This document shows positions 2,355 to 19,614 of a DNA stretch of 64,000 nucleotides, in pieces. This DNA is from Bradymonadia bacterium (GTDB lineage: Bacteria; Myxococcota_A; Bradymonadia; UBA7976; UBA1532): positions 192,001 to 256,000 of the forward strand of contig JBKAGE010000038.1 in assembly GCA_046290225.1 (NCBI GenBank), in the 5' to 3' direction. The notes beneath the pieces are model-generated. The model was not told where the DNA came from and searched no databases. It saw only the letters and a program-made list of their open reading frames with translations. Within the stretch, counting starts at the first letter, position 1. The number at the start of each line of letters is the position of its first letter. A program made the position numbers and the translations under genes.

Positions 2355-3333
2355 CGCCCCCGGATCCACCACCCATCTGGCCAATGTGGCTGCGCATCTC
2401 GGTGTCCGCGGCGATGTTCCTCAGGTTGTAGTAATCCATCACCCCCATGTTGCCGCTGCGCAGCGCCTCGGCGAGGGCCTGAGGCACCTCGGCCTCGGCC
2501 TCCGCCACCTTGGCTTTCATCTCCTGGAACCGAGCCATGGCCTCTTGCTCCGCGGCAACGGCCATGGCCCGACGGCTCTCTGCCTTGGCCTGGGCGATGT
2601 TCTTGTCGGCCTCGGCCTGCTCGATCTGCAGCTTGGCACCGATGTTGGCGCCGACATCGACGTCGGCGATGTCGATGGACAAGATCTCATAGGCCGTACC
2701 GGCGTCGAGCCCCTTCGCCATGACCACCTGAGAGATACGATCGGGGTTCTCCAACACCGCCTTGTGATTGCTCGCGGAGCCGATGGTGGTGACGATGCCC
2801 TCACCGACACGGGCGAGGATGGTGTCTTCGCCGGCGCCACCCACGAGACGCTCAATATTTGCCCGCAGCGTGATACGGCTCACGGCGATCAGCTGAATGC
2901 CGTCGCCTGCCATGGCGGCCACCTTCGGGGTCTGGATCACCTTCGGGTTTACGCTCATCTTCACCGCCTCGAGCACGTCGCGGCCGGCGAGATCGATGGC
3001 GGTGGCCTGAGCGAACGACAGGTTGATGCCCGCCTTGTCGGCGCTGATCAGCGCATTGACGACATTGCCGACGTTGCCCCCGGCGAGCCAGTGGGCCTCG
3101 AGCATGTCGATGGGCAGCTTGAGCCCCGCTTTTGCGCCGCTGATGCGGGGGTTCACGATCTGAGTGGGCGGCACTCGACGCAGACGCATGGCGATGAGCT
3201 GGAAGATGCTCACCCCGGCCCCAGAGAGGGCCGCTGCGATCCAGAGGCCGATGGGCACGAAGTACAGGAACAAGAGCACCAGGAAGAGGCCCACACCTCC
3301 CAGCACCAGCATCATCATGTTGTCGTCAAGCAT
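2344..3333 (-). CDS. floA: Flotillin-like protein FloA (YqfA/UPF0365)
   Basis: Characteristic segments [42 protein letters not shown] and [11 protein letters not shown]. Located directly downstream of nfeD. Confidence 0.95.
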
Positions 3334-4810
3334 CTGTCTCCTCCCGAACCACCACGATCCGCACCCCTTCCACCTGCACCACCCGAATCGGGGTACCCGC
3401 AGTGAGGTATTCCGTTTGACTCACGACATCGAGTACGTCGGAGCCCACCTTTGCCTTCCCAGAAAGTCTCAAATCGGTGAGCGCCTCCCCACGCTCGCCG
3501 ACATATCTGGCCCAGCCGGTGGGTGCCGAGGTGAAGCTCTCATCCTCACCGGCGCGGGTAGATCCCGCCCGCCCCACCGAGGCCTCGAGGACCATGCGTC
3601 CGCCGAGGCGGCTCTTGGGCAGAAACTTGATCACCGCCAACGAGCCCACCACGGCCACCACCAGAGAGACCATCACCAGACCCACAGATCGAGCGAGAGC
3701 CCCAGTCTGCCAGCTGACTTCGGTGGGCAGGCCGTTCATGGCCATGACCAGGCTGATCACGATGAGCACGATGCCCACCACCCCCACCACCCCGAAGCCC
3801 GGGATGACGAAGACTTCTACGAGCAACGCGATCACCCCCAAACTGAAGAGCAGCACCTCTTCCCAGCCGGCGAGCTCCACCACCATGTGACCACCGAAGA
3901 ACAGCGCGAGGCAGGTCAGGCCGAGGGCCCCAGGTACACCGAAGCCCGGAGAGTAGACCTCGGCGAGCATGCCCAGCAGCCCCAGAGACATCAGCAGCCC
4001 CGAGAACACTGGATCGGTGAGAAACCGCGCGAGCTTTTCAGCCCAAGTCAGGGTGGGGCTCACCCGCTTCGCCCCCTTCAGCCCCAACGCTTCGAGCACC
4101 CCCTCGAGGGTGTCTATGGGTGACGTGCTGATGCCCGTACGGACCGCAGAGTCGGTGGTGAGGGTGAGCAGCTTGCCCTTGGGCGAGACGCCGGGCACCT
4201 CTACATCTGCGTCCACCATGGCCTCGGCGAGGTCGCCATTGCGCCCCGTGGCCTCAGCGGTGGCCCGCATCTCCGAGCGCATGTAGCTGACCATCTTCTC
4301 GCCGACGGCTTTGGTCTCTCCCCCTTGAATCTGTACCGGCGTGGCGGCGCCGAGGGTGGCCCCTGGGGCGAAGACCACATGATCAGCGGCGAGGCTGATC
4401 AATGCCCCGGCACTGATGGCTCTGCGATCGATGTAGGCGATCACGGGCACCTCGGCTTTGAGCACTGCATCTCGAATCCGCACCGCGGCGTCGACCCGGC
4501 CACCGAAGGTGTCGACCTGCAAGATCACCGCGTCCACCTTGCCCTCGGCCTCGGAGATCAGGCGGCCGATGAACGGCGAGAGGCCCAAATCGATGGTGCC
4601 CGTCACCGGGATGATCATCACCTGGCCATTTTTCGCCTCGCCGCCCAGGTTGGGCAGCGCTGGTGCTGGTTCGAATTTAATCGATGGTGCCTCGACCTGC
4701 CCCGCATCACCTGATTGGGCCCCTTCTGGGGAGGCCTCGGGTGCTTGCGCATGGACCTGCGCGACACAGGCCATCAGCATCACCCACAACATCACGTTCC
4801 TCGGGTGCAT
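3326..4810 (-). CDS. nfeD: NfeD-family membrane-bound ClpP-class serine protease (YqeZ-like)
   Basis: Motifs [21 protein letters not shown] and GAATPV, a multi-TM middle region and a C-terminal OB domain ([11 protein letters not shown]...[11 protein letters not shown]). Start placed at ATG 4810 after an AGGAG RBS. Confidence 0.93.
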
Positions 4811-5046
4811 ATCGCTCCTCTCTCCTTGCCTGCCAGGGCCTCTGACTGCACAGAGCGGTTGACCCGGACAGCAGGTGCCAATATAGGCTTTGCCTCCACA
4901 AGACGGCACAGGTGACCTGATGTCGGTCACCCTCCGGTGAGGTATCCTGTACGCCTTGCCGTAGTTCAGAGTACGCCTGGAACGTCAGAAGAAGGACCGC
5001 CTCGGGGAAATATACCCTGTCCCCCTCCGGTTTCTTCCGAGCGAAA

Positions 5047-6001: not shown

Positions 6002-7225
6002 TCACAGCTCTCCCAGCCTGAAGCCCATGACAATGGTGTGGGTATCTGCGTCGACTCCTCCAGTGAGCAATCCGGGCTGATAGCGATAACCCACGCTGAA
6101 CGCCTCCATCCCGACATCAGCACCTACGACTGGCCCGATGACGAACGCCGGCCTCGCGATCTCCTCCGGCGAGAGTTCCACCTCCCGCACCGTGAGCGGA
6201 CATGCATCGACCCGCGGATCACAGCGCACCGAATCTGAGTAGAACGCTGGACCGTTGGTCCGATAGGTGTAGGCGCGGAACCGCGCACCAGCGGCGAGTG
6301 CGACGGGGATGGAGGCGACCTCGAACCCCTTCACCCTGGCCTCGGCGCTCATCGTGCTCCCAGTCATAGACACAGGGACGACGCCTGGCCCCGTGCCCTC
6401 AACGGGCTCGACGCCCAGGAGAGAAGGATTCGATCCGACATAGCCAGCGGATACGTTCACAGACCACCGCTCATGGACCCCAATGCTGGCCTCCAACTCA
6501 ACTGAGGTCGTACCTGCCCCCACCGGGCCATCTGTGTCGACCCCCAACCTGAGCGACCCTCGCAGATACATGTCGGGGAAAGGGGGCGCCCATCGAGTGC
6601 GCAGGGTGAGCAGGCGCTTCAACCGGCCGGCCCTGTCGACGAAGGCCATCACCCGACCGTTACGGTCGAAGAGGACGGCGCCAGGATCGAGGGCCGCCCC
6701 CACGCTCAGACGAGAGACACTCACTCCGGCGAGTTGGGTGGTCATGACCTCCACCGCATTTTGGAGACCTTTGCTGCCCGCTTCCTCCCGACGGGTGTGC
6801 CACACGGCATAGACCTGTTGCCCCATGTGGGCCTTTCCTGTGTAGGGCTGAAGTGAGAGCGGCGTGCCGTTGAGCATGCTCGACAAGTGCACCACCACAA
6901 AGGCGCTCTCGTCGAGCCCTTGGTGCTGAACCACCTCGACCCTCTCGGCCTCCACCCAGCCTCTGCCGTTGCGACAATGCGTCTTTCGAGCGGTGTCTCG
7001 CACCTCACTCTGCCGCTTGGGTGCCGGCAACAAGACGGTCTTGTTGTCATCGACGAGCACGCCATAGCCGAACATGTCGGGTGTGTTGCAGTAGACGAGG
7101 GCCCGGCTGAAGGTCTGCTGCACCCGAGCAGCTTCAGGGGTGAGGTCTTCGGGCTCAGCTGCAGCGAGAGCAGGCAGGCAGAGGCAGATGAACAGGCTCA
7201 GGGCGATGCGCAGTACGCGGGGCAT
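6002..7225 (-). CDS. Secreted degenerate trypsin-like domain fused to an outer-membrane beta-barrel (paralogue A)
   Basis: Signal peptide, HtrA-like fragments FGYGVLVDDNKTVL and GAVLFDRNGRVMA, and alternating beta-strands ending HTIVMGFRLGEL. Confidence 0.65.
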   Translation of the reverse strand: MPRVLRIALSLFICLCLPALAAAEPEDLTPEAARVQQTFSRALVYCNTPDMFGYGVLVDDNKTVLLPAPKRQSEVRDTARKTHCRNGRGWVEAERVEVVQHQGLDESAFVVVHLSSMLNGTPLSLQPYTGKAHMGQQVYAVWHTRREEAGSKGLQNAVEVMTTQLAGVSVSRLSVGAALDPGAVLFDRNGRVMAFVDRAGRLKRLLTLRTRWAPPFPDMYLRGSLRLGVDTDGPVGAGTTSVELEASIGVHERWSVNVSAGYVGSNPSLLGVEPVEGTGPGVVPVSMTGSTMSAEARVKGFEVASIPVALAAGARFRAYTYRTNGPAFYSDSVRCDPRVDACPLTVREVELSPEEIARPAFVIGPVVGADVGMEAFSVGYRYQPGLLTGGVDADTHTIVMGFRLGEL

Positions 7226-7365: not shown

Positions 7366-8595
7366 TCAGAAGAATCGAATCCCCAGCATCAGCGTGTGGG
7401 TGTCCACTTCGGTGTCCACGCTCAACGCTTCAGGCTGGTAGCGATAGCCCACGCTCAACATGCCAGAGCGAAAGTCCACGCCCAGCACCGGGCCAAAGCT
7501 CACCGAGGCGTTGTTGTCCCCCTCGAGGGGGTTCGTCGTGGTGCGCACGGTGACCGCGCAGGCCGCCATAGCGGGGTCGCATCCCGGGTCATCCGAATAC
7601 AGCGCAGGTCCCTGCGGATCGTGGGCATACGCCCTCAAGCGCGCGCCCACGGTGAAGTCGAGGTACATGGGGCCGAAGAGGTTCAGTTGATACCGGGGCT
7701 CGAGGCTCAGCGAGGCCCCGAGGAGCCGGGTGGAGACCACGCCTGGGCCACCGCCCTCCTCCAGAGGCTCGAGGGCGTAGAGCGACTGCTCTTGACCCGC
7801 GATCAGGCCCACACCGAAAGACACAGCATAGCGATCATTGAAGACGACCCCTGTCTCCAGCTCGAAGGTCCCCGCCCCTTCGCCGAGGGGCCCTTCGAAG
7901 TCGGTCCCGAAGCGGAGGCCGAGGATCGGGTTGACGGCGACAGGGCGCGCCTCAGGGGTGATCACGCCATAGCGAACCAGCCGCCCATCGGCGTCGGCGA
8001 GGGCCAGCAACCGCCCCTCGGCGTCGAGCACAGGTGTGGCAGGCTCGATCTCCGTGCCCACGCTCAAACGGCGCTGGCCCACGGCGGTCAGCCGCGTAGT
8101 CATCACCTCGACCTCGGTGGGGCCCACCTTCTCTTCGGGATAAGCCCACCCGGTGGCCTGCACTGCGTAGACTTTCTCATCCAGAGCCACTGCGGGCTCG
8201 TCGGCCCGTGCAGAGAGCGGCTTGCCTTCGAGGGGCTTCGACAGATGCATCACCAACAGGGGCACGTCGTAGTCCCGGGCCCGGACGATCTCCACCTTCT
8301 CGGTCTCCACCCACTCGGTGCCCCGAAAGCAGGTGATGTTCCGGCCATCGTCGTACCAGCGGCCCAACCACTTCGGTGCAGACGTAATCACCGTCTTGTT
8401 GTCGCCGATGAGCACACCGTCTCCGAACATCGACGTCGAGAAGCAACGCACATAGGCCTCGCTGGCGATGCGTTGCACCTGCGCGGCTTCTGAAGAGAGC
8501 GCCACAGTAGAGTCAGCGGTGGCCTCAGCGAAGGCTGTGGTGGTCAACAAGGTGAGGGTGAGCGCGCTTAACGGCAGCGCATGTGCACGTGACAT
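7366..8595 (-). CDS. Secreted degenerate trypsin-like domain fused to an outer-membrane beta-barrel (paralogue B)
   Basis: Colinear with paralogue A (FGDGVLIGDNKTVI, VEVMTTRL, SVGYRYQP) and ends in Phe (MLGIRFF). Confidence 0.65.
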   Translation of the reverse strand: MSRAHALPLSALTLTLLTTTAFAEATADSTVALSSEAAQVQRIASEAYVRCFSTSMFGDGVLIGDNKTVITSAPKWLGRWYDDGRNITCFRGTEWVETEKVEIVRARDYDVPLLVMHLSKPLEGKPLSARADEPAVALDEKVYAVQATGWAYPEEKVGPTEVEVMTTRLTAVGQRRLSVGTEIEPATPVLDAEGRLLALADADGRLVRYGVITPEARPVAVNPILGLRFGTDFEGPLGEGAGTFELETGVVFNDRYAVSFGVGLIAGQEQSLYALEPLEEGGGPGVVSTRLLGASLSLEPRYQLNLFGPMYLDFTVGARLRAYAHDPQGPALYSDDPGCDPAMAACAVTVRTTTNPLEGDNNASVSFGPVLGVDFRSGMLSVGYRYQPEALSVDTEVDTHTLMLGIRFF

Positions 8596-8905: not shown

Positions 8906-10918
8906 TCAGGGTGTTTGTTGCTCAGCGGTGTCGCGCTCACCCGTGGGGGTGCGGAAGGTGGGATCTTCGTCAGGGAGCGGGCTGTTGAGGTTGGTGGTGC
9001 CCGGGGTGGCGATGATGATGTCGCGGTAGGCCGGCCTTACGTTCTCGCCGCCAGCGTCGCCCCGCGCTTCACCCCACGAGCGGGGATCCGCGCCATCAAA
9101 GACGCGCACACAGGGACCCTCGACGTCGGTGCACGGCGCCTGGGATCGGACCATGGAGTAGTTGCGGATCACCCCATCGGCGCCGGTGCGCCGGCCGCCG
9201 AAGAAGGGTGGGCCACCATCGCCAGCCCGATCCACGATGGTGCCCTTCCGATCGACGAGACGCAGCTCGAAGTCGGCGTTGCGCAGGTTCAAGCGCAAGA
9301 ACCGCTGATCGTTGGCCATGTTCATCACGAAGTCGGCCTTGTCGTAGGCTCCACCACGAGTGTTCGGGTAGAGGTCGTCGTAAGGCTGGGTGTTGTGGCC
9401 GAGCACGAGGAAACGCTCGTAGGGGCCGATGACCGTGCCCGGGTAGAAACCCACCACGAAGTCGTTCTGGGTGGTCAGAGTCCAGAGCGAGAGATCGATC
9501 ACCTGGTCGGTGGTGTTGAGCAGCTCGACGAACTCATCGTTGTCCACGACGCCGCGGCCGTTGGCCTCGGGATCGTCGCAGGGCACCGTAAGGCCAGCGA
9601 TGGTCCGGTGCAGGCAGTCGCCGTTGTAGCCGTCCCACATGATCTCGTTGATGATCACGTCGCCGACCTCGACGCCGTCGGGATCGCCCACGTAGTTGCC
9701 GCCGTAGTCCTTCCCGATGTTCCAGAGCACGTCGAAGTATTCGATGTACTCGCCGCCCACGCGCTCCCCCTTGAGCACCAGCAGGGTCTCGTCATTGGAG
9801 ACCGTGGCGCTTGAGGACCAGTTGAACGAGCCCGTGAGCACCACGGGCTGCTCGGTGCGGCCATCGATGATCATGGTCTTGGAGTGCTGGCGCCCACCGC
9901 CGGCCTGGTAGTCACCGGGGGTGCGGCTGTTGTCGTTGCCGTCGATGCGCAGATCGAGGCCGTTGGCCAGCAGACGGTAGATCTCGTGGTAGGGGCCATT
10001 GGAGTGCAACTGCGAGCGGTCGATCACCCCCCGAACGAACTTGCGCCGGTAGGGCTGCTCACAGGTGATCTCCTGATCGCAGATCGCCAGCTCTTCGGCG
10101 CTCAGCTGCGGGCGACGGCCAGGGCTGCAGCAGTCGTTGTACCGCTCGAACTCGTTATGCTTGGCGATGAGCGACGAGCCCACCTGATCTTTGGTGAAGG
10201 CGAAGATGAAGAACTCGATGGACTCCGTGGCCTCGTCGAGGCCCTGAAGAATCCGCCCCATGCAGTCATCCTGGGGAGAGAAGCAGGTCTCCACGACGGT
10301 GTCGCCCACCTGGAAGGTGTTCCCGTTGTCGATGATCTGCTTCCCGAAGCCAAAGCGCCCACTCATCATCTGGTCGAACTCGTCGGTGAAATCGGAGGCC
10401 ACCTGAGGCGAGTCGATGAAGGCCCAGTTGTTGTCGTTCCGGTTGAAGCCCGTGGTGGTGATGTTTCCGGTACCGGTGAGCACGAAGCGATCGTCGATGA
10501 CGAAGAACTTGTTGTGCATGATGTGGCTCTGGTTACCGATGGCCATGGGCACGTTGAGCCGGTCCATCTCGTGGTAACCGCTCACGGTGCCCCAGGCGTG
10601 ACGGGCGTCACCGACGAAGCGCAGCTCCACCCCTCTGAACCATGCCCGCACCAGAGCGTCGACGATGGTCTTCTTGCTGAAGCCCATGACGGCGAAGTCG
10701 ATCTTCGCCGTGGCCCGGTCGATCATCTGCACCAGGATGTCGTCCACGGGGGTGTTGATGCCGTCCTGCTCATTGCTCGAGGGGCGGTTGAAGTGGGTGG
10801 TGACCAGGGGGGACATGGCCCGGGCCTCGTCGGCGGCGTCGAGGGTCTGGCTGCACCCGCCAAGCCCTGCAGAGAGGCCCACCGCGCTCAAGAGCAACGC
10901 CGAAAGATGCTGTTTCAT
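8906..10918 (-). CDS. Lipoprotein: phospholipase D/Nuc-superfamily enzyme (two intact HKD motifs) plus C-terminal lamin-tail domain
   Basis: Lipobox LGGC; MHNKFFVID...TGTGN and QHSKTMIID...TGSFNWS; LTD signature VIINEIMWDG...DEFVELLN...IDLSLWTL...TPG. ATG 10918 overlaps the upstream stop (ATGA). Confidence 0.9.
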   Translation of the reverse strand: MKQHLSALLLSAVGLSAGLGGCSQTLDAADEARAMSPLVTTHFNRPSSNEQDGINTPVDDILVQMIDRATAKIDFAVMGFSKKTIVDALVRAWFRGVELRFVGDARHAWGTVSGYHEMDRLNVPMAIGNQSHIMHNKFFVIDDRFVLTGTGNITTTGFNRNDNNWAFIDSPQVASDFTDEFDQMMSGRFGFGKQIIDNGNTFQVGDTVVETCFSPQDDCMGRILQGLDEATESIEFFIFAFTKDQVGSSLIAKHNEFERYNDCCSPGRRPQLSAEELAICDQEITCEQPYRRKFVRGVIDRSQLHSNGPYHEIYRLLANGLDLRIDGNDNSRTPGDYQAGGGRQHSKTMIIDGRTEQPVVLTGSFNWSSSATVSNDETLLVLKGERVGGEYIEYFDVLWNIGKDYGGNYVGDPDGVEVGDVIINEIMWDGYNGDCLHRTIAGLTVPCDDPEANGRGVVDNDEFVELLNTTDQVIDLSLWTLTTQNDFVVGFYPGTVIGPYERFLVLGHNTQPYDDLYPNTRGGAYDKADFVMNMANDQRFLRLNLRNADFELRLVDRKGTIVDRAGDGGPPFFGGRRTGADGVIRNYSMVRSQAPCTDVEGPCVRVFDGADPRSWGEARGDAGGENVRPAYRDIIIATPGTTNLNSPLPDEDPTFRTPTGERDTAEQQTP

Positions 10919-12282
10919 CGGGCCTCCAGCAGGTTCAGGTACCACGAGACCGCGGCCTCGTAATCGCTCTGGCGACGCACCAGCGACTCGTGGAGCACCA
11001 ACAGGTTGCCGTCGGTGAAGAAGTCGCTGGGCAGGGCGTAGACCAGGTCATCGGCGAGATCGCGGCCAAAGGCCACCGTGGGCGCCAGCGGCTGCGACGA
11101 CACCATGACCTGACCGGGGTACTTCACCCCGTTCATCGGCGAAGGATCGACGTCGATGAGTATGGTGGTGCCCACCACCCCCTCGCGGACCGCCAACGAC
11201 GGCCTCAGCGTACGCCCCGTGGGGGCCACGCGGCCTTCGGCAGCCACCGCCTGGAACACCGCCGACAGATCACCGGCGAGGCTGACCTCCACACAGTCCG
11301 CTCTGGGCTCTCCCGTGTTGGGATCGTCACCACAGCAGAAGGCCGCGGTGCCCTCACAGGTGTTGTCCACGGGCCACGCCTCGGAGGCCGCCTCGGGGGC
11401 GAGGACCACCTGCACGTCGAAGCCTGCGGCGGCCTTGTAGGCCAGGGCCTCGAAGAGGCGAGGGTTGGAGAAGCTCTGGGCCACCACCCACACTGAGGAG
11501 CGCGCGCCATAGACCCGGTCGATGAGCTCCTTCGTCAGGGGCTCTTGCGGGCCGATGGACCACTCCACCACGCCGTCTTCCACAGGGTAGAAAGTGCGGA
11601 AGTTGCCGTCGGCGCCGAGGGGGGCGCCGAAGACCGTGAGGCTGGTGGAGAACGTGCCCCCGATCAGCTGGTTCAGGCTGTGACCCATGTCGCGGCCGAG
11701 GATCTCGCCCCGGCCCTGGGCCCCGAGCTGCCACATCGTTGAGTCAGGGCCCTGGAACCCACCCGTAAGGGAGATGAACCGGTACTGATCGACGAGCAGG
11801 AACCCGTGGGTCATGCGGTTGCTGTCGCCGGTGCGATCGACCTCGATGCCCGGCTGCGGTGACCAGAACTGCTGGCCGTCGCCGTAGGTGATGGGCACGC
11901 CGCCGGCTTCGAGCAGGGCAAAACCCACCTCGTCAGCGGTGTCGGCGTCGGCGGCCACCCGAACATCGACGCCGGCCTGGGCCTTGGCCACGAGGGCCTC
12001 GGCGATGGCCTCGCTGTTCAGGTGGGCCACGGCCATCTCGATCTTGTCTTCGGCGGTGTCGATGAGGGCCAGGGCCCGATCTTCGAACTGCGCCGGGGTG
12101 AGCACGCCGTCGGCGGGGGTGACCCCCGCAGGGGCTACGGTGACGGTGGCGAGCTTCTCGAAGTAGCTCGCCTCGCCGTCGATGGCCGCCGGATCACCGT
12201 CGAAGGGGGCCGGCATCGGATCGTCACCGCAGGCGGTGGCGAGGGCCAGGGCCGCGGGCATCACGAGGTGTGTGATCTTCAT
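10915..12282 (-). CDS. Lipoprotein with a double PLD-like fold but degenerate HKD motifs (pseudo-PLD)
   Basis: Lipobox ATAC. PLD scaffold LIDTAEDKIEMAV..LNSEAIAEAL..KAQAGVDVRV, repeated as IDRVYGARSSVWV...ALAYKAAAGFDVQVVL. The HKD positions read MTHGFLLVD and VVGTTILID. Confidence 0.75.
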   Translation of the reverse strand: MKITHLVMPAALALATACGDDPMPAPFDGDPAAIDGEASYFEKLATVTVAPAGVTPADGVLTPAQFEDRALALIDTAEDKIEMAVAHLNSEAIAEALVAKAQAGVDVRVAADADTADEVGFALLEAGGVPITYGDGQQFWSPQPGIEVDRTGDSNRMTHGFLLVDQYRFISLTGGFQGPDSTMWQLGAQGRGEILGRDMGHSLNQLIGGTFSTSLTVFGAPLGADGNFRTFYPVEDGVVEWSIGPQEPLTKELIDRVYGARSSVWVVAQSFSNPRLFEALAYKAAAGFDVQVVLAPEAASEAWPVDNTCEGTAAFCCGDDPNTGEPRADCVEVSLAGDLSAVFQAVAAEGRVAPTGRTLRPSLAVREGVVGTTILIDVDPSPMNGVKYPGQVMVSSQPLAPTVAFGRDLADDLVYALPSDFFTDGNLLVLHESLVRRQSDYEAAVSWYLNLLEAR

Positions 12283-13136
12283 TGGAAATCCCCCGATGAC
12301 ACGAAGCCGCTGTAGTCGGGGCTGTTGGGCATACCCGGCGTGGCGAAGGTGAGCGGGCGGAACTCTTCGGCGATGCGGCGCCGGAGCGAGACATGAAGCG
12401 CCGCTGCCTCGGGATCAGGGCTCGGCAGCCCCGGGAACGGATCGTTGAGGGCGTAGCTGTGCCACGCCGCTTCGCGGTTGCCCCGGTTGTTGAAGATGAG
12501 CTGAATGCGCTCCATGGAGCGGGCGCTCACCAGGTCGTAGCCGCCGGCGAAGGGCCGCTTGCGCTCGTCGCCAGCGCCGTCGATGAGGCGCTCGTCGAGA
12601 TCCCGCAACGTGATGCTGAAGGGGGCCTCGGGCAGGGCGAGGCCCTCGATGAAGATGTCGGCGTCGGCGAAGGCCCCGTCGCGCTTGTTGGCGATGACCA
12701 GAAACTGGTTGGGCTCGATGGGCCGGTTGTCCTCCCGAGCAGGGATCACATAGGTCCGGGCCCAGGGCTTCTGGCGGCTGCCCCCTTCGGTGAGGCCGTC
12801 GCTGTCGTTCCCGGTCTCGATGGTGAGCAGCCAGCCGGTGACGAACATCGCCCGGTTGTGCTTGTTCTGTAGCTCGATGAAGTCGTCGTCCGGATCGTAG
12901 ACCCGGCTCGGTCGCGACATCGTGAGATCGCCCTTCACGCTGCCGGCCCAGTGGACCTCGGTGATTTGGAAGTTGCCGCGCTCCCCGTTGGACCGATAGT
13001 CGTCGGCGGCGGTGCCGGTGCGATAGCCCACCTGCTGGTTGCGCTCGTCGCGCTCCAAGCTGCCGCTGAGCTGATCACAGCCCGCCACGGCCACCGCCGA
13101 GGTCATGGCCAGGGTGATGAGGTGTGACGCCTTCAT
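12279..13136 (-). CDS. Lamin-tail-domain lipoprotein
   Basis: Lipobox VAGC; ITEVHWAGS...DDFIELQN...VTGWLL...IEPNQFLVIAN...ITLRD....LID...RSMER...ATPG.PNS. ATG 13136 overlaps the upstream TGA (TGATG). Confidence 0.8.
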   Translation of the reverse strand: MKASHLITLAMTSAVAVAGCDQLSGSLERDERNQQVGYRTGTAADDYRSNGERGNFQITEVHWAGSVKGDLTMSRPSRVYDPDDDFIELQNKHNRAMFVTGWLLTIETGNDSDGLTEGGSRQKPWARTYVIPAREDNRPIEPNQFLVIANKRDGAFADADIFIEGLALPEAPFSITLRDLDERLIDGAGDERKRPFAGGYDLVSARSMERIQLIFNNRGNREAAWHSYALNDPFPGLPSPDPEAAALHVSLRRRIAEEFRPLTFATPGMPNSPDYSGFVSSGDFQ

Positions 13137-14857
13137 CAGAAGGTCACCATGGCACCGGCTCGGCCGGCCCAGAAGGTCTCGGTGCCTCCGAGCATGGTCT
13201 GATCGCCAGCGGCGGCGGGGTCGATCTCGATCTCGTAGAACGCCCCAGGCATGAACAGACCAAGATCGGCATAGAGACGGAAGTTGGCGTCCACCTCGTA
13301 CCCTGCGGAGAGGTTGAACTCCTGACCAAGGGCCTTGCCGAAGCGCTCCTGAGCGGCCACCTGGGCCTTGGACACCCCGAAGGGCAGCTCGGGCAGGTCG
13401 GTGAGACCGGCGCCGAAGTTCACCTCGCTGCTGCTGGTGTCGGTGTAGAGCCAGGTGTCGGCCCGCAGGGTGAAGCCCCCAACGCGGGTGCCGGCGCCGA
13501 AGTGCAGGAACTCGGTCCCCGAGACGCGGAAGAGCTCGTTGGGCGAGGCGTCGACGCCGAAGGTGTCCAGGGCCGCCGAGGGGCGCCACACCGAGAGGCG
13601 GCCGATGGCGAAGCCACCGACGCGGTTGCCGCGGAAGCTCACGAAGCCCCGCTCGTACTCGAGGCCGTCGCTGCCGTACTTGGCCCCGTCGAAGTGATAG
13701 CCGTCGCCCTGCAGGAAGAAGATGAGATCGTCGCTGCTCTGGATCCGGGCCTGCACGCCGCCACCATATGCGTTGCCGCCGGTGTCGACGTCTCGGAGCA
13801 CGGGGTTCTGACGGTCGATGCCCTCGGAGCGGGCGAACTCACCATAGAACTGCAGCTCGGTGCCACCACCCAGGGGCAGCTGGTAGGCCACGCGGCCGCC
13901 CCCGAGGTGCTGGTAGTCACGGTCGCGGAAGTTGCCGTTCTTACCGCCGAAGCTGATGTCGGCGCCCGACTCCTCGATGGGGCCGCCGCCGATGCTGGCG
14001 TAGAAGTAGTAGGCCCGCAGATCGAGGCGGCCCTCGTCGCTGTTGCCGGTGTCGAAGTCGTAGACCGCGCCGGTGCGGTAGGTCACCGTCTCGCCCCGCA
14101 GGCCGAAGACCGTGTCGCTGCCGTCCTTGAAGGTGCGCACGCCGCTGATGGGCAGGTCGTTTGCGGCGTAGAAGTCGATGGCCATGATGCGCAGCGAGCC
14201 GGCCTTGCCGAGGCCCACGTCGAAGGTCAGGCCGTCCATGGTGCCCTCGAGCATGTACTCCTTGGGCACCCCGCCGATGCGGAAGGGCTGACGGCCGAAG
14301 CGGGCCGTGAGGTTGAAGTCGTCGCCCTCGATGAAGGTGTAGTCGAAGTTCAGGCGGAACACCTGCACCCCGCCGCCCACGCCGTTGCTGCGGCCGAGGC
14401 GGTCGTCGCGCCACAGCAGGTTGTACTTGAGCTGGGTGTCGAAGCGGAGCTTGGGGTTCACCCGATAGGCCAGCGATACCGCCACATCGGTGTAGCCCGT
14501 GTTGGTGCGATCGTCGCTGTAGAAGACCGCCTCGTCGTTGCGCTCGTCGAGGGCGCGGAAGTCGCGGTTCTCGAAGCCGATGACCTCGCTCGCCGAGACC
14601 ACCTTCACCACGGGCACCCCCACCTGCATGGGGGCGCTCTTCTGTTGGATCACCGTCTCCAACGGATCCTCGAGGAACCGGGCGCTCGTCGGCGGGGCGA
14701 TGCGGGTGTCGATTTGGGTCTCGGGGCCCGCCTCGATGACCACGTCCTCTTGATCCTGGGCCTGTGCCGAGGTGGGTGCCATGACACCACAGGCACCGAA
14801 GATGCCCCCCGTGAAGCCCACCGCCGTCCAGATACCGCGCTTACCGAAGTCTCTCAT
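13136..14857 (-). CDS. Outer-membrane beta-barrel protein (porin/alginate-export-like)
   Basis: Signal peptide (SAQA|Q), Gly/aromatic alternating strands throughout, an ARFGRQPF motif and a C-terminal Phe (AGAMVTF). Confidence 0.8.
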   Translation of the reverse strand: MRDFGKRGIWTAVGFTGGIFGACGVMAPTSAQAQDQEDVVIEAGPETQIDTRIAPPTSARFLEDPLETVIQQKSAPMQVGVPVVKVVSASEVIGFENRDFRALDERNDEAVFYSDDRTNTGYTDVAVSLAYRVNPKLRFDTQLKYNLLWRDDRLGRSNGVGGGVQVFRLNFDYTFIEGDDFNLTARFGRQPFRIGGVPKEYMLEGTMDGLTFDVGLGKAGSLRIMAIDFYAANDLPISGVRTFKDGSDTVFGLRGETVTYRTGAVYDFDTGNSDEGRLDLRAYYFYASIGGGPIEESGADISFGGKNGNFRDRDYQHLGGGRVAYQLPLGGGTELQFYGEFARSEGIDRQNPVLRDVDTGGNAYGGGVQARIQSSDDLIFFLQGDGYHFDGAKYGSDGLEYERGFVSFRGNRVGGFAIGRLSVWRPSAALDTFGVDASPNELFRVSGTEFLHFGAGTRVGGFTLRADTWLYTDTSSSEVNFGAGLTDLPELPFGVSKAQVAAQERFGKALGQEFNLSAGYEVDANFRLYADLGLFMPGAFYEIEIDPAAAGDQTMLGGTETFWAGRAGAMVTF

Positions 14858-14928
14858 CGCTCGCTCTTCTGCTCGGCGGGGCCGAGGCCTCAAGTGTGTT
14901 CGTTGAAGGTGTGTAGATTCGAAATGGC

Positions 14929-16038
14929 TCAGGGGATCACCCGGGGCTCACCGGGATCCGCGAGGACCTCCACCTGACCGAGCTGGATGATCCAAATCTC
15001 TCGACGGCGGAAACCCCAGACCACGGGGCCGGTCACCGAGACCTGGGACCCCACGGGCACCGTGAAGCCCCGGCGACCCAGCTCGGCGTCGGCGCTCGCC
15101 GACCAGCACTGCATCGTGAGCTCGGCAGCGTCGAAGTCGGTGGTGCGGCCGGTGCACAGCTCCGGGCAAATCGTGTCACCACAGAGCTCGTCTCCGCAGG
15201 CGGTGTTCTGGGTGCACGGCGTGCGACAGAAGCGCATGCAGACCGGATCAGGCTCCGGCGCGTCTACCGCCCGCGGCTCGATGGGCTCCGAAGAGAGCAC
15301 CATGTCGTTGAAGTTGTCGTTGGTGGGCTGCACGGCCACATAGCCCTGGATCCGCCGGACCTGCCCCATGTCCGCGTCGCCGAAGAGCCCCTGCTGCCAG
15401 GTGAAGAACACCGGGCGGAAGGGGCGCCCGTCGGGATCACGGGCAGGCTCGATGCGCTCGACGTCGGCGATGATCACCGCCCGATCCGTGGGCTGGCGGA
15501 ACAGCTGCCCCACCCCGCGGATGGTCATCCGTACGCGATCACCAAAGGTGTAGTCCGCCACCCGGCCATCTCTGAGCACCACCATGCCGCCCGTGTCGTC
15601 GGCGATGGCGTACACGCCGTAGTTGCGCTCGTCCTGACCGCAGACATCTACCTTGCGGTAGTAGCGTGGGTGCAAAGTGACCACCGCCTCCACGGTCATG
15701 GGCAACATATCGAGGGTGCGGCGCTCCTCTGAGCACGCCATGGGGGCCGGCTCATCGGCGCCGGTGTAGAGCACGAGGTTGGGCTGACCGCTCAAGTCAC
15801 CGGGCAACGCCGCGAGCAGATCGCCGAGGCCCGGCTGGCCATCAGCAGGGAGGCCATAACCTGCCGCCCGAGAGCCGTCGATGAAGGTCACCGGCTCTTG
15901 CACCGGCAGCGTCTCCACAGGCTCGTTCCAGATCTCGTCGGGGTTCACCCGGTCTTCGAGCTCACCGGCGCAGCCCACACAGGTCAGCGCGAGCACCCAC
16001 CCACCGAGAGACTTCAAGAGAGACGTGCGGCCGATCAT
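14929..16038 (-). CDS. Lipoprotein with two OB-folds (DUF5689/YhcR-like) and a Cys-rich insert
   Basis: Lipobox VGC. OB1: TVEAVVT...YAIADDTGGMVV.....YTFGDRVRM. OB2: GQVRRIQGYV...VPVGSQVSVTGPV. Confidence 0.7.
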   Translation of the reverse strand: MIGRTSLLKSLGGWVLALTCVGCAGELEDRVNPDEIWNEPVETLPVQEPVTFIDGSRAAGYGLPADGQPGLGDLLAALPGDLSGQPNLVLYTGADEPAPMACSEERRTLDMLPMTVEAVVTLHPRYYRKVDVCGQDERNYGVYAIADDTGGMVVLRDGRVADYTFGDRVRMTIRGVGQLFRQPTDRAVIIADVERIEPARDPDGRPFRPVFFTWQQGLFGDADMGQVRRIQGYVAVQPTNDNFNDMVLSSEPIEPRAVDAPEPDPVCMRFCRTPCTQNTACGDELCGDTICPELCTGRTTDFDAAELTMQCWSASADAELGRRGFTVPVGSQVSVTGPVVWGFRRREIWIIQLGQVEVLADPGEPRVIP

Positions 16039-16040
16039 GG

Positions 16041-16952
16041 CTACTGCTCCACGTGGTTGGTGTGCCAGTCGAAGTTGATGGTGTCGAACTGGATGTCGGT
16101 GTTGAAGGCCCGGACCGGCCCCACATAGGTGACGCACTGCCCAGCGGTGAGGAAGTCGCTGGAGCTGCGGAAGATGCCCACGCCAGCACCGTAATTGAAC
16201 GTATTCCAACAGCGGCTCGAGCCACCACAGCCCACCGGCTCACCCTCGAGGATCCCCGTAACCCTGACCACTCGATCGACATCGTCCACAGTGAGGGCTC
16301 GATCTGGCTCGAACACGTGGACCGGCTGGTCGACGTTCACCAACTCCCACTCGGCGGCCTTGGTGATTTGCCCCTTGCCCCGGAACAGATTCACCTCGGT
16401 GACCTTCACCGAGACCACGTTGCCCACCTGCATGTCGAAGGGCGGCACGCTGTCGGGCTCGTTCTGATCGAGGAAGAACTCCACCGCCCCATTGGCATCT
16501 TCGAGCCAGAAGCGCGTCTGGCTTGCTGGCAAGCCGCCGCTGCCGAAGAAGCTCGTCGCCGAGACCACCGCTTCGGTGATCTGCAAATCCACAGGGACCG
16601 AGGTCTCCTCTGCAGGGAACGCAGCCTTCACCGCGGCGATCCCCGTGTCCCCATCGGGCCACGGGGTGAAGGCGGGGGTGCCCCCGTTCGGCGGCTCGGC
16701 CCCGGGGCCGTTGATCTGGCCAGCGAAGTCGATGACCGCCGGGCAGCCCTCGGGGTTCGTCATGCCCCCACCTGCGCCGCCGATGGCGCCTCCGGCCCCT
16801 CCGATGGGCGGCGTCACCACCGCCTCCACGCCCAGATCGGGGCGGGTGCGGAACGTGCCGAGGGTGAGATCGGCCGGATCTTCCCCCTGATCGCAGCCGG
16901 CGAGGGCACACAACATCAGGGTGAGGCAGGCGGACGTGCGGTGGGTGGGCAT
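16041..16952 (-). CDS. Lipoprotein with two OB-folds (YhcR/ExeM N-terminal type)
   Basis: Lipobox LAGC. OB1: ITEAVVSA...FWLEDANGAVEFF...MQVGNVVSVKVTEV..FRGKGQI. OB2: VVRVTG...GQCVTYVGPVRAFNTDIQF. Confidence 0.75.
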   Translation of the reverse strand: MPTHRTSACLTLMLCALAGCDQGEDPADLTLGTFRTRPDLGVEAVVTPPIGGAGGAIGGAGGGMTNPEGCPAVIDFAGQINGPGAEPPNGGTPAFTPWPDGDTGIAAVKAAFPAEETSVPVDLQITEAVVSATSFFGSGGLPASQTRFWLEDANGAVEFFLDQNEPDSVPPFDMQVGNVVSVKVTEVNLFRGKGQITKAAEWELVNVDQPVHVFEPDRALTVDDVDRVVRVTGILEGEPVGCGGSSRCWNTFNYGAGVGIFRSSSDFLTAGQCVTYVGPVRAFNTDIQFDTINFDWHTNHVEQ

Positions 16953-17781: not shown

Positions 17782-17904
17782 GGCGCACCTCTCGTCTCGT
17801 CATCGACAGAGCCCGCACAGCGGTGAGTGCGTTGACGGCTCGGTCGCGGGTATGTGAAACACACTCACCCCTGTCGGGGCATCAGCCACAGTTCGGGAGT
17901 AGGG

Positions 17905-19614
17905 ATGAGCGGCTTCGTCGACACATTCAACGAGATCCTCGAGACCGTCAACGGGATCATCTGGGACGAGATGGTCCTCTACGTGGTCATGGGGGTCGGG
18001 GTGCTGTTCACCCTCTGGAGCGGCTTTGGTCAGTACCGCGCCCTCACCCACGGCACCGCGGTCACCCTCGGCAGATATGACGACGATGACCATGGAGATG
18101 GCGCCATCAGCCACTTCCAGGCCCTCTCGGCGGCCCTCTCCGCCACCGTGGGCCTCGGCAACATCGGCGGCGTCGCCGTGGCCATCGCCATCGGCGGGCC
18201 CGGGGCGGTGTTCTGGATGTGGATGGTGGGCATCGTGGGCATGGCCCTGAAGTCCACCGAGGTCACGCAGTCCATGTTGTTCCGGAAGACCGACGACGCC
18301 GACAACCCCAGCGGCGGCCCCATGTGGGTGGTCACCCGGGGCAGCGCCGACAAGGGTCCTCTGCTCGCAGGCCTCGGCAAGGCCCTCGGGGTGACCTTCT
18401 GTATCACCCTGCTCATCAGCAGCGTCACCGGCGGCAACATGTTCCAGGCCTGGAACGTCGCCGACGTGACCTTCACCGAGTTCGGGATGAACAAGCAGCT
18501 CACCGGGATCATCCTCGCCGTGCTCGTGGCGGCGGTCATCCTCGGTGGCATCAAGCGCATCGGTCAGGTGGCGGGCACCCTGGTCCCCCTCATGTGCGGC
18601 ATCTATCTCGTGGCCGCCATCTATGTGCTGATCCAGACCTATGAGCAGATCCCTGCAGTCTTCGGCCTCATCATGGACGGCGCCTTCAACCCCGTGGGGG
18701 CCCAGGAGGCCTTCCTCGGCGGCACCATGGGCTATGCGTTCTTGTGGGGCATGAAGCGGGCCCTCTTCAGCAGCGAAGCAGGTCAGGGCTCCTCGCCCAT
18801 CGCTCACTCCGCCGCTCGAACCTCCGAGCCTGTCCGCGAGGGCGTCGTGGCGGGCCTGGAGCCCTTCATCGACACCCTGGTGGTGTGCACGCTCACCGCT
18901 CTGGTGCTGCTCTCGAGCGGCGCCTGGAACCGCGGCGCCGAGGCCACCTTCGACACCGCCCCTCAGGTGGTGGCCGGTGCCGACGCAGGCACCTGGACTT
19001 TGAGCGCCTCAGCGGCCACAGCCCCCGGTAAAACCCGCAAGGCGGAGTCCATCGGCGGCACCTGGAAGCCGGGCCAGGCGGTGTTCATGCTGTACGAAGG
19101 GGAAGAGGTCCAGGGCCAGGGCACCAACATGCACCGCATCATGGGCACCATCCAACCCGCAGAGGGCAACGTCTTCTCCATCAAGTGGGACGCGGTGAAG
19201 TCGAAGACCCAACCAAAACTGGTCAACAACGGGCTCTATGTGGACTACGTCGCCGCCAGCCTCACGAGCTATGCCTTCAACAGCGTGACCCCAGGGTTGG
19301 GCACCTGGCTGATCACCATCGCCGCGTGGCTCTTCGCGCTGTCCACCATGATCTCGTGGAGCTACTACGGCGAGCAGGGCATCGTGTACCTCTTCGGCAA
19401 CAAAGCGGTTCTGCCCTACAAACTGATCTATTGCGCACTGATCTTCGCGGCATGCTCCGGCCTCGTGAGCACCACCACCGAGCTGTCCAACCTCACAGAT
19501 CTCGGCACAGGGGTGATGCTGTGGGCCAACATCCCCATCATGCTGCTCTTCGCCCCTCGGGCGATGAAGGCCTGGCATGGCTACTTCGCTCGAATGAAGG
19601 CCAGAAAAGCATGA
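17905..19614 (+). CDS. Alanine/glycine:cation symporter (AGCS/AlsT family)
   Basis: ATVGLGNIGGVAVAIAIGGPGAVFWMW, GGPM, ALFSSEAGQGSSPIAHS, FIDTLVVCT and FALSTMISWSYYGE. Confidence 0.93.
   Translation: MSGFVDTFNEILETVNGIIWDEMVLYVVMGVGVLFTLWSGFGQYRALTHGTAVTLGRYDDDDHGDGAISHFQALSAALSATVGLGNIGGVAVAIAIGGPGAVFWMWMVGIVGMALKSTEVTQSMLFRKTDDADNPSGGPMWVVTRGSADKGPLLAGLGKALGVTFCITLLISSVTGGNMFQAWNVADVTFTEFGMNKQLTGIILAVLVAAVILGGIKRIGQVAGTLVPLMCGIYLVAAIYVLIQTYEQIPAVFGLIMDGAFNPVGAQEAFLGGTMGYAFLWGMKRALFSSEAGQGSSPIAHSAARTSEPVREGVVAGLEPFIDTLVVCTLTALVLLSSGAWNRGAEATFDTAPQVVAGADAGTWTLSASAATAPGKTRKAESIGGTWKPGQAVFMLYEGEEVQGQGTNMHRIMGTIQPAEGNVFSIKWDAVKSKTQPKLVNNGLYVDYVAASLTSYAFNSVTPGLGTWLITIAAWLFALSTMISWSYYGEQGIVYLFGNKAVLPYKLIYCALIFAACSGLVSTTTELSNLTDLGTGVMLWANIPIMLLFAPRAMKAWHGYFARMKARKA

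Follow-up and report, generated by a model that had tools for sequence, protein, structure and literature searches.

The window analysed here, a 64,000-nucleotide stretch of a Bradymonadia bacterium genome (assembly GCA_046290225.1, contig JBKAGE010000038.1, positions 192,001 to 256,000), carries on its minus strand an operon of six co-directional genes, A to F, which we read, with a probability of about 0.6, as encoding an outer-membrane machine for the cleavage of DNA or RNA outside the cell, the products of which would be let in to supply phosphate and nucleosides. The operon is real, strongly conserved and, apparently, undescribed. In its putative composition, a pair of OB-fold lipoproteins and a pore are combined with a phospholipase D (PLD) family enzyme, F, that lies beside a split copy of itself (E and D). 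The six genes, with the fold assignments that were made for them originally and that stood, are:

A, 16041..16952, minus strand, 303 aa: lipoprotein with two predicted OB domains
B, 14929..16038, minus strand, 369 aa: lipoprotein, paralogue of A
C, 13136..14857, minus strand, 573 aa: predicted outer-membrane beta-barrel
D, 12279..13136, minus strand, 285 aa: lipoprotein with a lamin-tail domain (LTD)
E, 10915..12282, minus strand, 455 aa: lipoprotein, PLD fold with degenerate motifs
F, 8906..10918, minus strand, 670 aa: lipoprotein, PLD fold with intact motifs, followed by an LTD

An open reading frame (ORF) check recovered the genes at these coordinates, in the order and with the overlaps that had been described: 2 nt separate A from B and 71 nt separate B from C, C and D overlap in TGATG, and D and E as well as E and F overlap in ATGA. 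With a regular expression of our own making (not SignalP), a lipobox-like signal was detected in 40/44 homologues of A, 40/40 of B, 40/41 of D, 36/40 of E and 35/36 of F, and in 2/40 homologues of C, the signal peptide of which is of the Ala-x-Ala type; these counts, along with the model of C, agree with the original prediction of five lipoproteins and one outer-membrane barrel. In a Pfam scan, F matched PLDc_2 twice and LTD, E matched PLDc_2, D gave a sub-threshold LTD match, and A, B and C had zero matches.

The barrel is present in 27/61 related genomes and in 78/401 genomes of the phylum (74 strong matches and 4 short weak ones), in nearly all carriers as a single copy. It is nearly fixed in some families (34/35 genomes in f6, 7/8 in f3, and 20 strong matches among at least 21 genomes in f31), patchy in the family of the window itself (5/17), and undetected in a number of large families (0/29 in f10, 0/26 in f16, 0/23 in f22 and 0/26 in f29). 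Gene order was compared in 41 loci from nine families, namely, the window and 40 distinct loci out of the 78 other carriers, with long contigs and strong matches preferred and L033 excluded as a duplicate of L011. The block C-D-E-F is contiguous in 39/41 loci, across all nine families, and the remaining two are truncated at contig ends. The complete order ABCDEF is found in 27 loci, and with an additional opposite-strand A gene in four more; four loci have BCDEF, two have ABAACDEF, three are interrupted by contig ends, and in one the D gene is frameshifted (L042:8556-9381, split by the frameshift, possibly an assembly error, with the other five genes intact). Because the flanking genes vary between lineages, the six genes themselves appear to be the unit, and because barrel identity among the loci is only 29–54% while the flanks change, chance linkage is untenable as an explanation, despite the non-independence of related genomes. 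The co-conservation that had been anticipated for this gene set is thus borne out. A plasmid search yielded 439 records, all of them single-domain PLD or endonuclease matches, none of which covers 80% of the query.

The expectation that A is a stoichiometric part of a six-protein complex did not survive this comparison: four loci lack A, two have three copies of it, and it is tethered by a low-complexity linker with a median of 88 residues after its Cys, compared with 12–27 residues in B, D, E and F. With its long linker and variable copy number, A stands apart from the four short-linked lipoproteins, and the arrangement suggests a fixed C-D-E-F(-B) core accompanied by a flexible catcher, A. 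Some A proteins contain two or three tandem double-OB modules per chain (L016:12121-14064, L019:5960-7885, L032:1-2511).

The likely catalytic component is F, a predicted nuclease that, by its sequence, belongs to the Nuc/Zucchini-type two-HKD phosphodiesterases and carries a C-terminal LTD. Both HxKxxxxD motifs are intact in 36/37 F homologues that cover both, with the downstream G(S/T)xN element likewise in place; the sole homologue of the 37 with an altered second HKD is the F gene of L020 (contig start to 1866, minus). The motifs of F, and the corresponding features of E and D, are:

10493..10516, minus strand: F HKD motif 1, HNKFFVID; H, K and D invariant in 18/18 aligned rows
9863..9886, minus strand: F HKD motif 2, HSKTMIID, followed by GSFNWS; H, K and D invariant in 18/18 aligned rows
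11788..11811, minus strand: degenerate HKD motif 1 of E, THGFLLVD, aligned to HNKFFVID of F by HHalign
12282..12329, minus strand: D tail, PNSPDYSG..S.G.FQ, conserved and absent from the LTD of F; candidate barrel-docking peptide

In profile searches of the PDB, the closest matches of F are PLD6/Zucchini (E 6e-19), Nuc (3e-18) and NucT (2e-15), followed by the Serratia enzyme 7E0M (2e-10), FAM83B and PLD3/4; no Streptomyces-type PLD or cardiolipin synthase is found among its 19 matches at E ≤ 1. Among the NCBIfam models, the best is NucT (E 3e-12, 46 bits, below the cut-off of 297), compared with E 4e-5 and 22.9 bits (below the cut-off of 290) for cardiolipin synthase. F differs from the single-domain NucT/Nuc chain in having two repeats and an LTD, and starts with a lipoprotein signal where cardiolipin synthase has N-terminal membrane helices. 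Of the seven Atlas rows with structural neighbours, one is a PLD-SNase fusion cluster. A match to DrmC of the DISARM system (35 bits, cut-off 133) brought up an anti-phage role, which was discounted in view of the export of all six proteins.

E is paralogous to the catalytic portion of F (HHalign 99.7), with His and Lys substituted and HxKxxxxD found in 0/40 homologues, so that the proposed presence of a dead PLD next to an intact one holds. In a tree of 49 rows, with near-duplicates excluded, E and F fall into separate, supported groups that contain the same main lineages, and the branches of E are longer. D matches the Pfam LTD model weakly (E 8e-4, under the cut-off), the assignment is confirmed by profile comparison, and D is a paralogue of the LTD of F (HHalign 99.6); judging by these comparisons, D and E together represent a split, dead copy of F. 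The tail motif N[ST]xD[YF][STA]G occurs in 40/40 Myxococcota D proteins.

The AlphaFold2 (AF2) model of A (pLDDT 92) consists of two OB domains, for which a nucleic-acid ligand is predicted. The top Foldseek match is the HIN domain of p202 (E 9e-5, TM ~0.35), followed by the HIN domains of p204 and IFI16, and then by POT1 and RPA. B is a paralogue of A (HHalign probability 93.6, E 2e-7) that, apart from its short tether, shows a Cys-rich insertion in the alignment of some homologues; a B homologue at L051:6109-9150 has ~540 residues inserted between the OB parts. The two proteins had been expected to belong to DUF5689, but sequence comparison does not place them there: Pfam gives no match, and neither the profile of A nor that of B finds one in the DUF5689 region of P0054. 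The Atlas leads for B are DUF5689 and tRNA_anti-codon OB, both at 0.88, below the 0.9 line, and the A-like protein of one distant locus (L053, see below) matches DUF5689 at E 3e-4, under the cut-off. Profile searches of the PDB with A, B and C returned nothing significant, and a search of 7999 candidates for longer proteins with A as a fused part found none, which is weak evidence.

The confident model of C (AF2 pLDDT 83.7, pTM 0.87) has 18 long strands and lacks a TonB plug, which characterizes C as an outer-membrane plug-less porin of the AlgE/Occ/MOMP type. AlgE is the best match in Foldseek (E 5e-13) and by VIA (Z 24.1, root-mean-square deviation 3.5, 358 aligned), with OpdQ (Z 23.0) and Campylobacter MOMP (Z 22.8) close to it, compared with Z of only 12.4 for the TonB-dependent FecA. 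C lies outside any Pfam family: it does not match Alginate_exp (PF13372), for which one of 35 relatives (P0093) passes the cut-off and four more are weak.

The strongest evidence for a nucleic-acid substrate comes from the context of distant barrel loci. Among 1.84 billion representatives, a profile search recovered 193 relatives of the barrel (E ≤ 0.001), with a second, more distant tier, and a metagenome scan with five barrel relatives gave nine loci, seven of them distinct (L056/57 and L059/60 are near-copies). The annotated names of ten distant barrels are uninformative. These loci probably come from spirochaetes because the flagellin that adjoins L058 is nearest to flagellins of 281–286 aa, including 6PWB FlaB1, which we take to be spirochaete proteins. 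D-like and F-like genes are located upstream of the barrel in 5/7 distinct loci, the other two contigs being too short; LTD and PLD, and sometimes OB and pseudo-PLD, are retained, in an order different from that in Myxococcota. Two HKD motifs were found in 5/5 distant F-like proteins tested and none in 2/2 distant pseudo-PLDs. L054 encodes, in order, an OB protein, an Ig-LTD lipoprotein, D, F, two 5'-nucleotidases, the barrel, a pseudo-PLD-LTD fusion and two endonuclease I proteins, with a CNT nucleoside transporter and a uridine kinase ~0.7 kb past the gene run; L053 encodes OB, Ig-LTD, D, F, the barrel, pseudo-PLD-LTD and endonuclease I. In L055 and L056/57, 5'-nucleotidases immediately precede the barrel, and in L060 an alkaline phosphatase heads the run; L058 and L061 have neither a nucleotidase nor a nuclease neighbour in the DNA available there. 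By raw count, a 5'-nucleotidase or endonuclease I lies inside the gene run in 4/7 distinct loci, and it is because these genes sit within a co-directional run that the salvage-gene argument carries weight: by association, it favours the nucleic-acid substrate that was originally proposed. The pseudo-PLD-LTD fusion of L053 and L054 mirrors E and D, although its orthology to E is unsure because of the long branches in the tree. Two further features of these loci are a short ORF that separates the D and F genes (L053:7533-7820), which presumably resembles a GIY-YIG nuclease, and an unusual fusion in which the CNT transporter carries N-terminal Ig/OmpL47-like domains (L054:16936-19293).

The flanks in Myxococcota provide weaker context. 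Out of 66 flanking ORFs picked, 44 were scanned, repeats of scanned families and apparent shadow frames being excluded. An EEP-family gene flanks 5/40 Myxococcota loci (four of a single family, L020, L021, L022 and L027, plus L044), and L021 additionally has an acid phosphatase on its downstream side. In 11 loci of one family (L036, L038, L040-L043, L045-L047, L049 and L050), a divergent kinase-PP2C fusion is found upstream, often with a sulfatase after it. The genome that contains the window encodes four endonuclease I proteins, two CNTs and udk. In a long secreted protein found elsewhere, a relative of the PLD of F is fused to DUF5689. The presence of endonuclease I (48/71 genomes) does not follow that of the locus. 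About 120 kb outside the window, a stand-alone two-HKD PLD-3xLTD lipoprotein paralogue (G000:C38:69587-72334; L052:9588-12335, minus) converges on the gene of a PhoD phosphatase exported by the Tat route; an EEP-family gene is ~4.6 kb off, and a 906-aa ORF without a Pfam match is immediately upstream.

Within the window, neither a sigma-70 promoter nor a terminator signal above chance was found for the operon. Upstream of A, on the minus strand, are GTCACA (17052-17047), GGTACA (16990-16985) and a perfect 7-bp inverted repeat, GTGCTGA-TTTT-TCAGCAC (17026-17009). GGTACA and GTCACA are enriched in 6–7 of 26 upstream regions by k-mer count, without correction for multiple testing; a Pho box is not claimed. 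Downstream of F, two tandem, apparently paralogous exported proteins are encoded (6002-7225 and 7366-8595, minus), with a weakly trypsin-like N-terminal part and a C-terminal part that resembles a beta-barrel; these genes are not kept beside the operon in other loci. An NfeD-family membrane protein (3326-4930) and a sodium:alanine symporter (17854-19614) are ordinary neighbours.

In the favoured orientation, with the lipoproteins facing outward, A, with its long tether and variable copy number, would catch nucleic acid and the short-tethered B would hand it over to F. F would then cut with a single active site built from its two HKD motifs, as in Nuc and Zucchini; the formation of one active site by two HKD motifs is established PLD-family chemistry. 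E and D, paired with F, may serve as a scaffold that fixes F to the barrel, with the D tail as the likely docking peptide. Short oligonucleotides and nucleotides would diffuse through the plug-less C, after which periplasmic phosphatases would strip the phosphate, and a CNT and uridine kinase would salvage the nucleosides; in the distant loci, the salvage genes are part of the run or adjoin it, and in the present genome they are found at other sites. Because C is a plug-less porin without an energy source, short products are expected to pass, rather than long threaded DNA, so that the import through the pore proposed at the outset is retained for small products and becomes less likely for long DNA. 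A more specific version of this scheme, which we put forward only tentatively and consider more doubtful than the general one, is a TonB-independent ‘DNA utilisome', myxobacterial and spirochaete-like, in which a Nuc/Zucchini nuclease would be clamped on an AlgE-like porin by its split dead self-copy and fed by HIN-like OB lipoproteins, with cutting coupled to passage.

Several observations weigh against the proposed role in nucleic-acid feeding, in which nuclease activity, DNA binding and assembly are predictions drawn from sequences and models. All six proteins are acidic (medians of -5 to -9 per 100 aa, with A at -8.4, while the median of the genome is -3.2; in the distant loci, values of 0 and -3.3 per 100 aa make the OB domains almost neutral), but HIN domains hold DNA through basic surfaces. 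The OB matches of A are generic, with TM ~0.35 for the whole and, for the single domains, VIA Z of ~8, tied among many OB proteins (tRNA synthetases, MCM, RPA). At the inward strand positions of C, as assigned by hydrophobic alternation and with conserved loop arginines outside the count, acidic residues exceed basic ones (20.7 vs 12.0 over 120), unlike in an anion channel, and five conserved residues are acidic and three basic. One two-domain PDB match of F, 7E0M, is deposited as a phospholipase; in L058 and L059, no E gene follows the barrel; most Myxococcota loci lack an adjacent nucleotide gene; and phmmer detected no UshA-type nucleotidase in the present genome. Finally, purine auxotrophy does not track the locus, purF being present in this genome and in 56/74 carriers. 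purF is missing in 18/74 carriers vs 29/327 non-carriers (counts obtained by subtraction), which was rejected as support: 15 of the 18 purF-less carriers come from one family, and two families lack both purF and the locus. These two families, f2 and f4, belong to the class of the window (purF not found in 3/3 and 11/11 genomes, and the locus likewise not found), and are possibly purine auxotrophs with another supply route.

Some of these observations would be accommodated by a true phospholipase D or another phosphodiesterase acting on lipid head groups or prey wall polymers, with the porin admitting the head groups. The PLD fold handles both kinds of substrate, PLD6 itself being deposited as a cardiolipin hydrolase, the acidity of the proteins and of the pore lining is consistent with such a role, an acyl-CoA dehydrogenase adjoins L059 on the opposite strand, and LTD and OB domains are described as able to bind membranes or sugars in the available text of PMC6746945. 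Nevertheless, Nuc, Zuc and NucT function as nucleases according to the accessible part of PMC8004604, in which the authors of 7E0M point to nuclease-like loops and leave its substrate undecided. The co-directional neighbours are nucleotidases and endonucleases rather than lipid enzymes, no lipase or glycerophosphodiesterase families occur among the 44 scanned flanking ORFs, and the cardiolipin synthase models score far below NucT for F, which makes this alternative unlikely. A role directed outward, in which an AlgE-like barrel exports or trims a polymer, such as matrix extracellular DNA or another polyanion, in biofilm remodelling or escape from DNA traps, is a still fainter prospect. The best fold match of C is indeed an exporter, the near-fixation of the locus in some families (34/35; 20 of at least 21) resembles that of housekeeping envelope genes, and extracellular nucleases, for example, Xds, are reported to shape biofilms; but the recurrent neighbours of the locus include no synthase, flippase or inner-membrane exporter, uptake porins tie with AlgE in the fold score, and the salvage genes point inward.

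DNA uptake for transformation or repair is improbable to about the same degree as the phospholipase. The OB lipoproteins and the porin would then thread one strand, with F trimming or degrading the other, as proposed for cyanobacterial ComA, the nuclease of which is said to be of the PLD type, and for a protein pair of Riemerella. AlgE-type barrels are established to let a polyanionic polymer through, and ComEC is encoded in the present genome. In the available texts, transformation of Synechocystis depends crucially on ComA, in which DNA-binding and endonuclease domains are predicted (PMC7690421), and that of Riemerella requires a DUF5689 protein together with the outer-membrane protein adjacent to it (PMC8459023). 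On the other side, the nucleotidases and endonuclease I of the homologous runs, along with the nucleoside transporter and uridine kinase, point to DNA being destroyed and salvaged; no com or pil genes and no helix-hairpin-helix DNA receptor are found among the six proteins or the recurrent or scanned flanking ORFs; ComEC is widespread (10/14 control genomes); and the operon lacks an energising module.

The nearest described system is ddbABCDEF of Bacteroides thetaiotaomicron (bioRxiv 10.1101/2025.03.18.642099), on which the following comparison relies as far as the accessible text of the preprint goes. Both loci consist of six genes, encode lipoprotein nucleases or a predicted nuclease along with an outer-membrane transporter, and follow the logic of a polysaccharide utilisation locus; both include an adjacent tandem-OB protein, the model of DdbD matching the p202 HIN as that of A does. 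DdbC, however, is a TonB-dependent transporter, unlike the 18-strand plug-less C; a DUF5689 protein lies beside the transporter there, whereas A and B have no DUF5689 match by sequence; and three nucleases are encoded there, compared with one PLD-type enzyme, a dead paralogue and a free LTD here, in a different phylum. The present operon would thus work like the ddb locus without being a member, lacking a TonB transporter and having a different nuclease. A ‘DNA utilisation locus' is in itself an established concept, through ddb, and it is the composition that remains new: the porin, the PLD nuclease and the split pseudo-enzyme apparently form a new combination of parts for this concept.

Other known systems share single elements with the operon. 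Nuc, NucT and Zucchini/PLD6, which are single-HKD homodimers, have the HKD catalytic fold in common with F, but F differs in its two HKD repeats per chain, lipid anchor, LTD and pseudo-enzyme neighbour. The porins AlgE, Occ (OprD) and MOMP share the fold of C (Z 20–24) at 9–13% identity, and we know of no porin of this type paired with a nuclease operon. In Riemerella anatipestifer (RA0C_RS04915/04920), an outer-membrane protein likewise stands beside a DUF5689 protein handling outside DNA, but the barrel is a DdbC homologue, the function is transformation, and PLD and LTD terms are absent from the accessible text (PMC8459023). Xds and ExeM are surface-associated nucleases that have LTD and OB as accessory domains, the OB domain being required for the activity of Xds, but, as described in the available parts of PMC6746945 and PMC6085458, each is a single polypeptide that contains an EEP catalytic domain and lacks a pore of its own, compared with the separate lipoproteins, porin and PLD here. 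In the DNA-degradation loci of Ca. Izemoplasmatales, nuclease-LTD proteins are clustered with nucleoside transport and catabolic genes; these differ in having ABC transporters, and a porin or phospholipase is unmentioned in the main text (PMC8289736). A literature search, with most subscription papers and supplements outside its reach, found no published description of the operon, and it is unmentioned in the accessible text of PMC7460792 and PMC11509652. Because PLD is not named among the domains searched in a survey of secreted nucleases from sludge genomes, in its available text (PMC11495043), the F family may escape such screens.

Extracellular DNA is a major pool of phosphorus and nitrogen, as noted in the accessible part of PMC8289736. 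In cultured Bradymonadales, purine synthesis and, mostly, pyrimidine synthesis are reported to be incomplete, and no uptake route for purines or pyrimidines is named in the available text of that report (PMC7460792). In Gram-negative bacteria other than Bacteroidota and pilus-users, the passage of DNA across the outer membrane is poorly known. If the interpretation proposed here is correct, the operon would be a second, independently built solution for feeding on DNA, it would provide a substrate for an unclassified porin family and a role for a bacterial pseudo-PLD, and the barrel would become a marker gene for DNA-foraging lineages in metagenomes.

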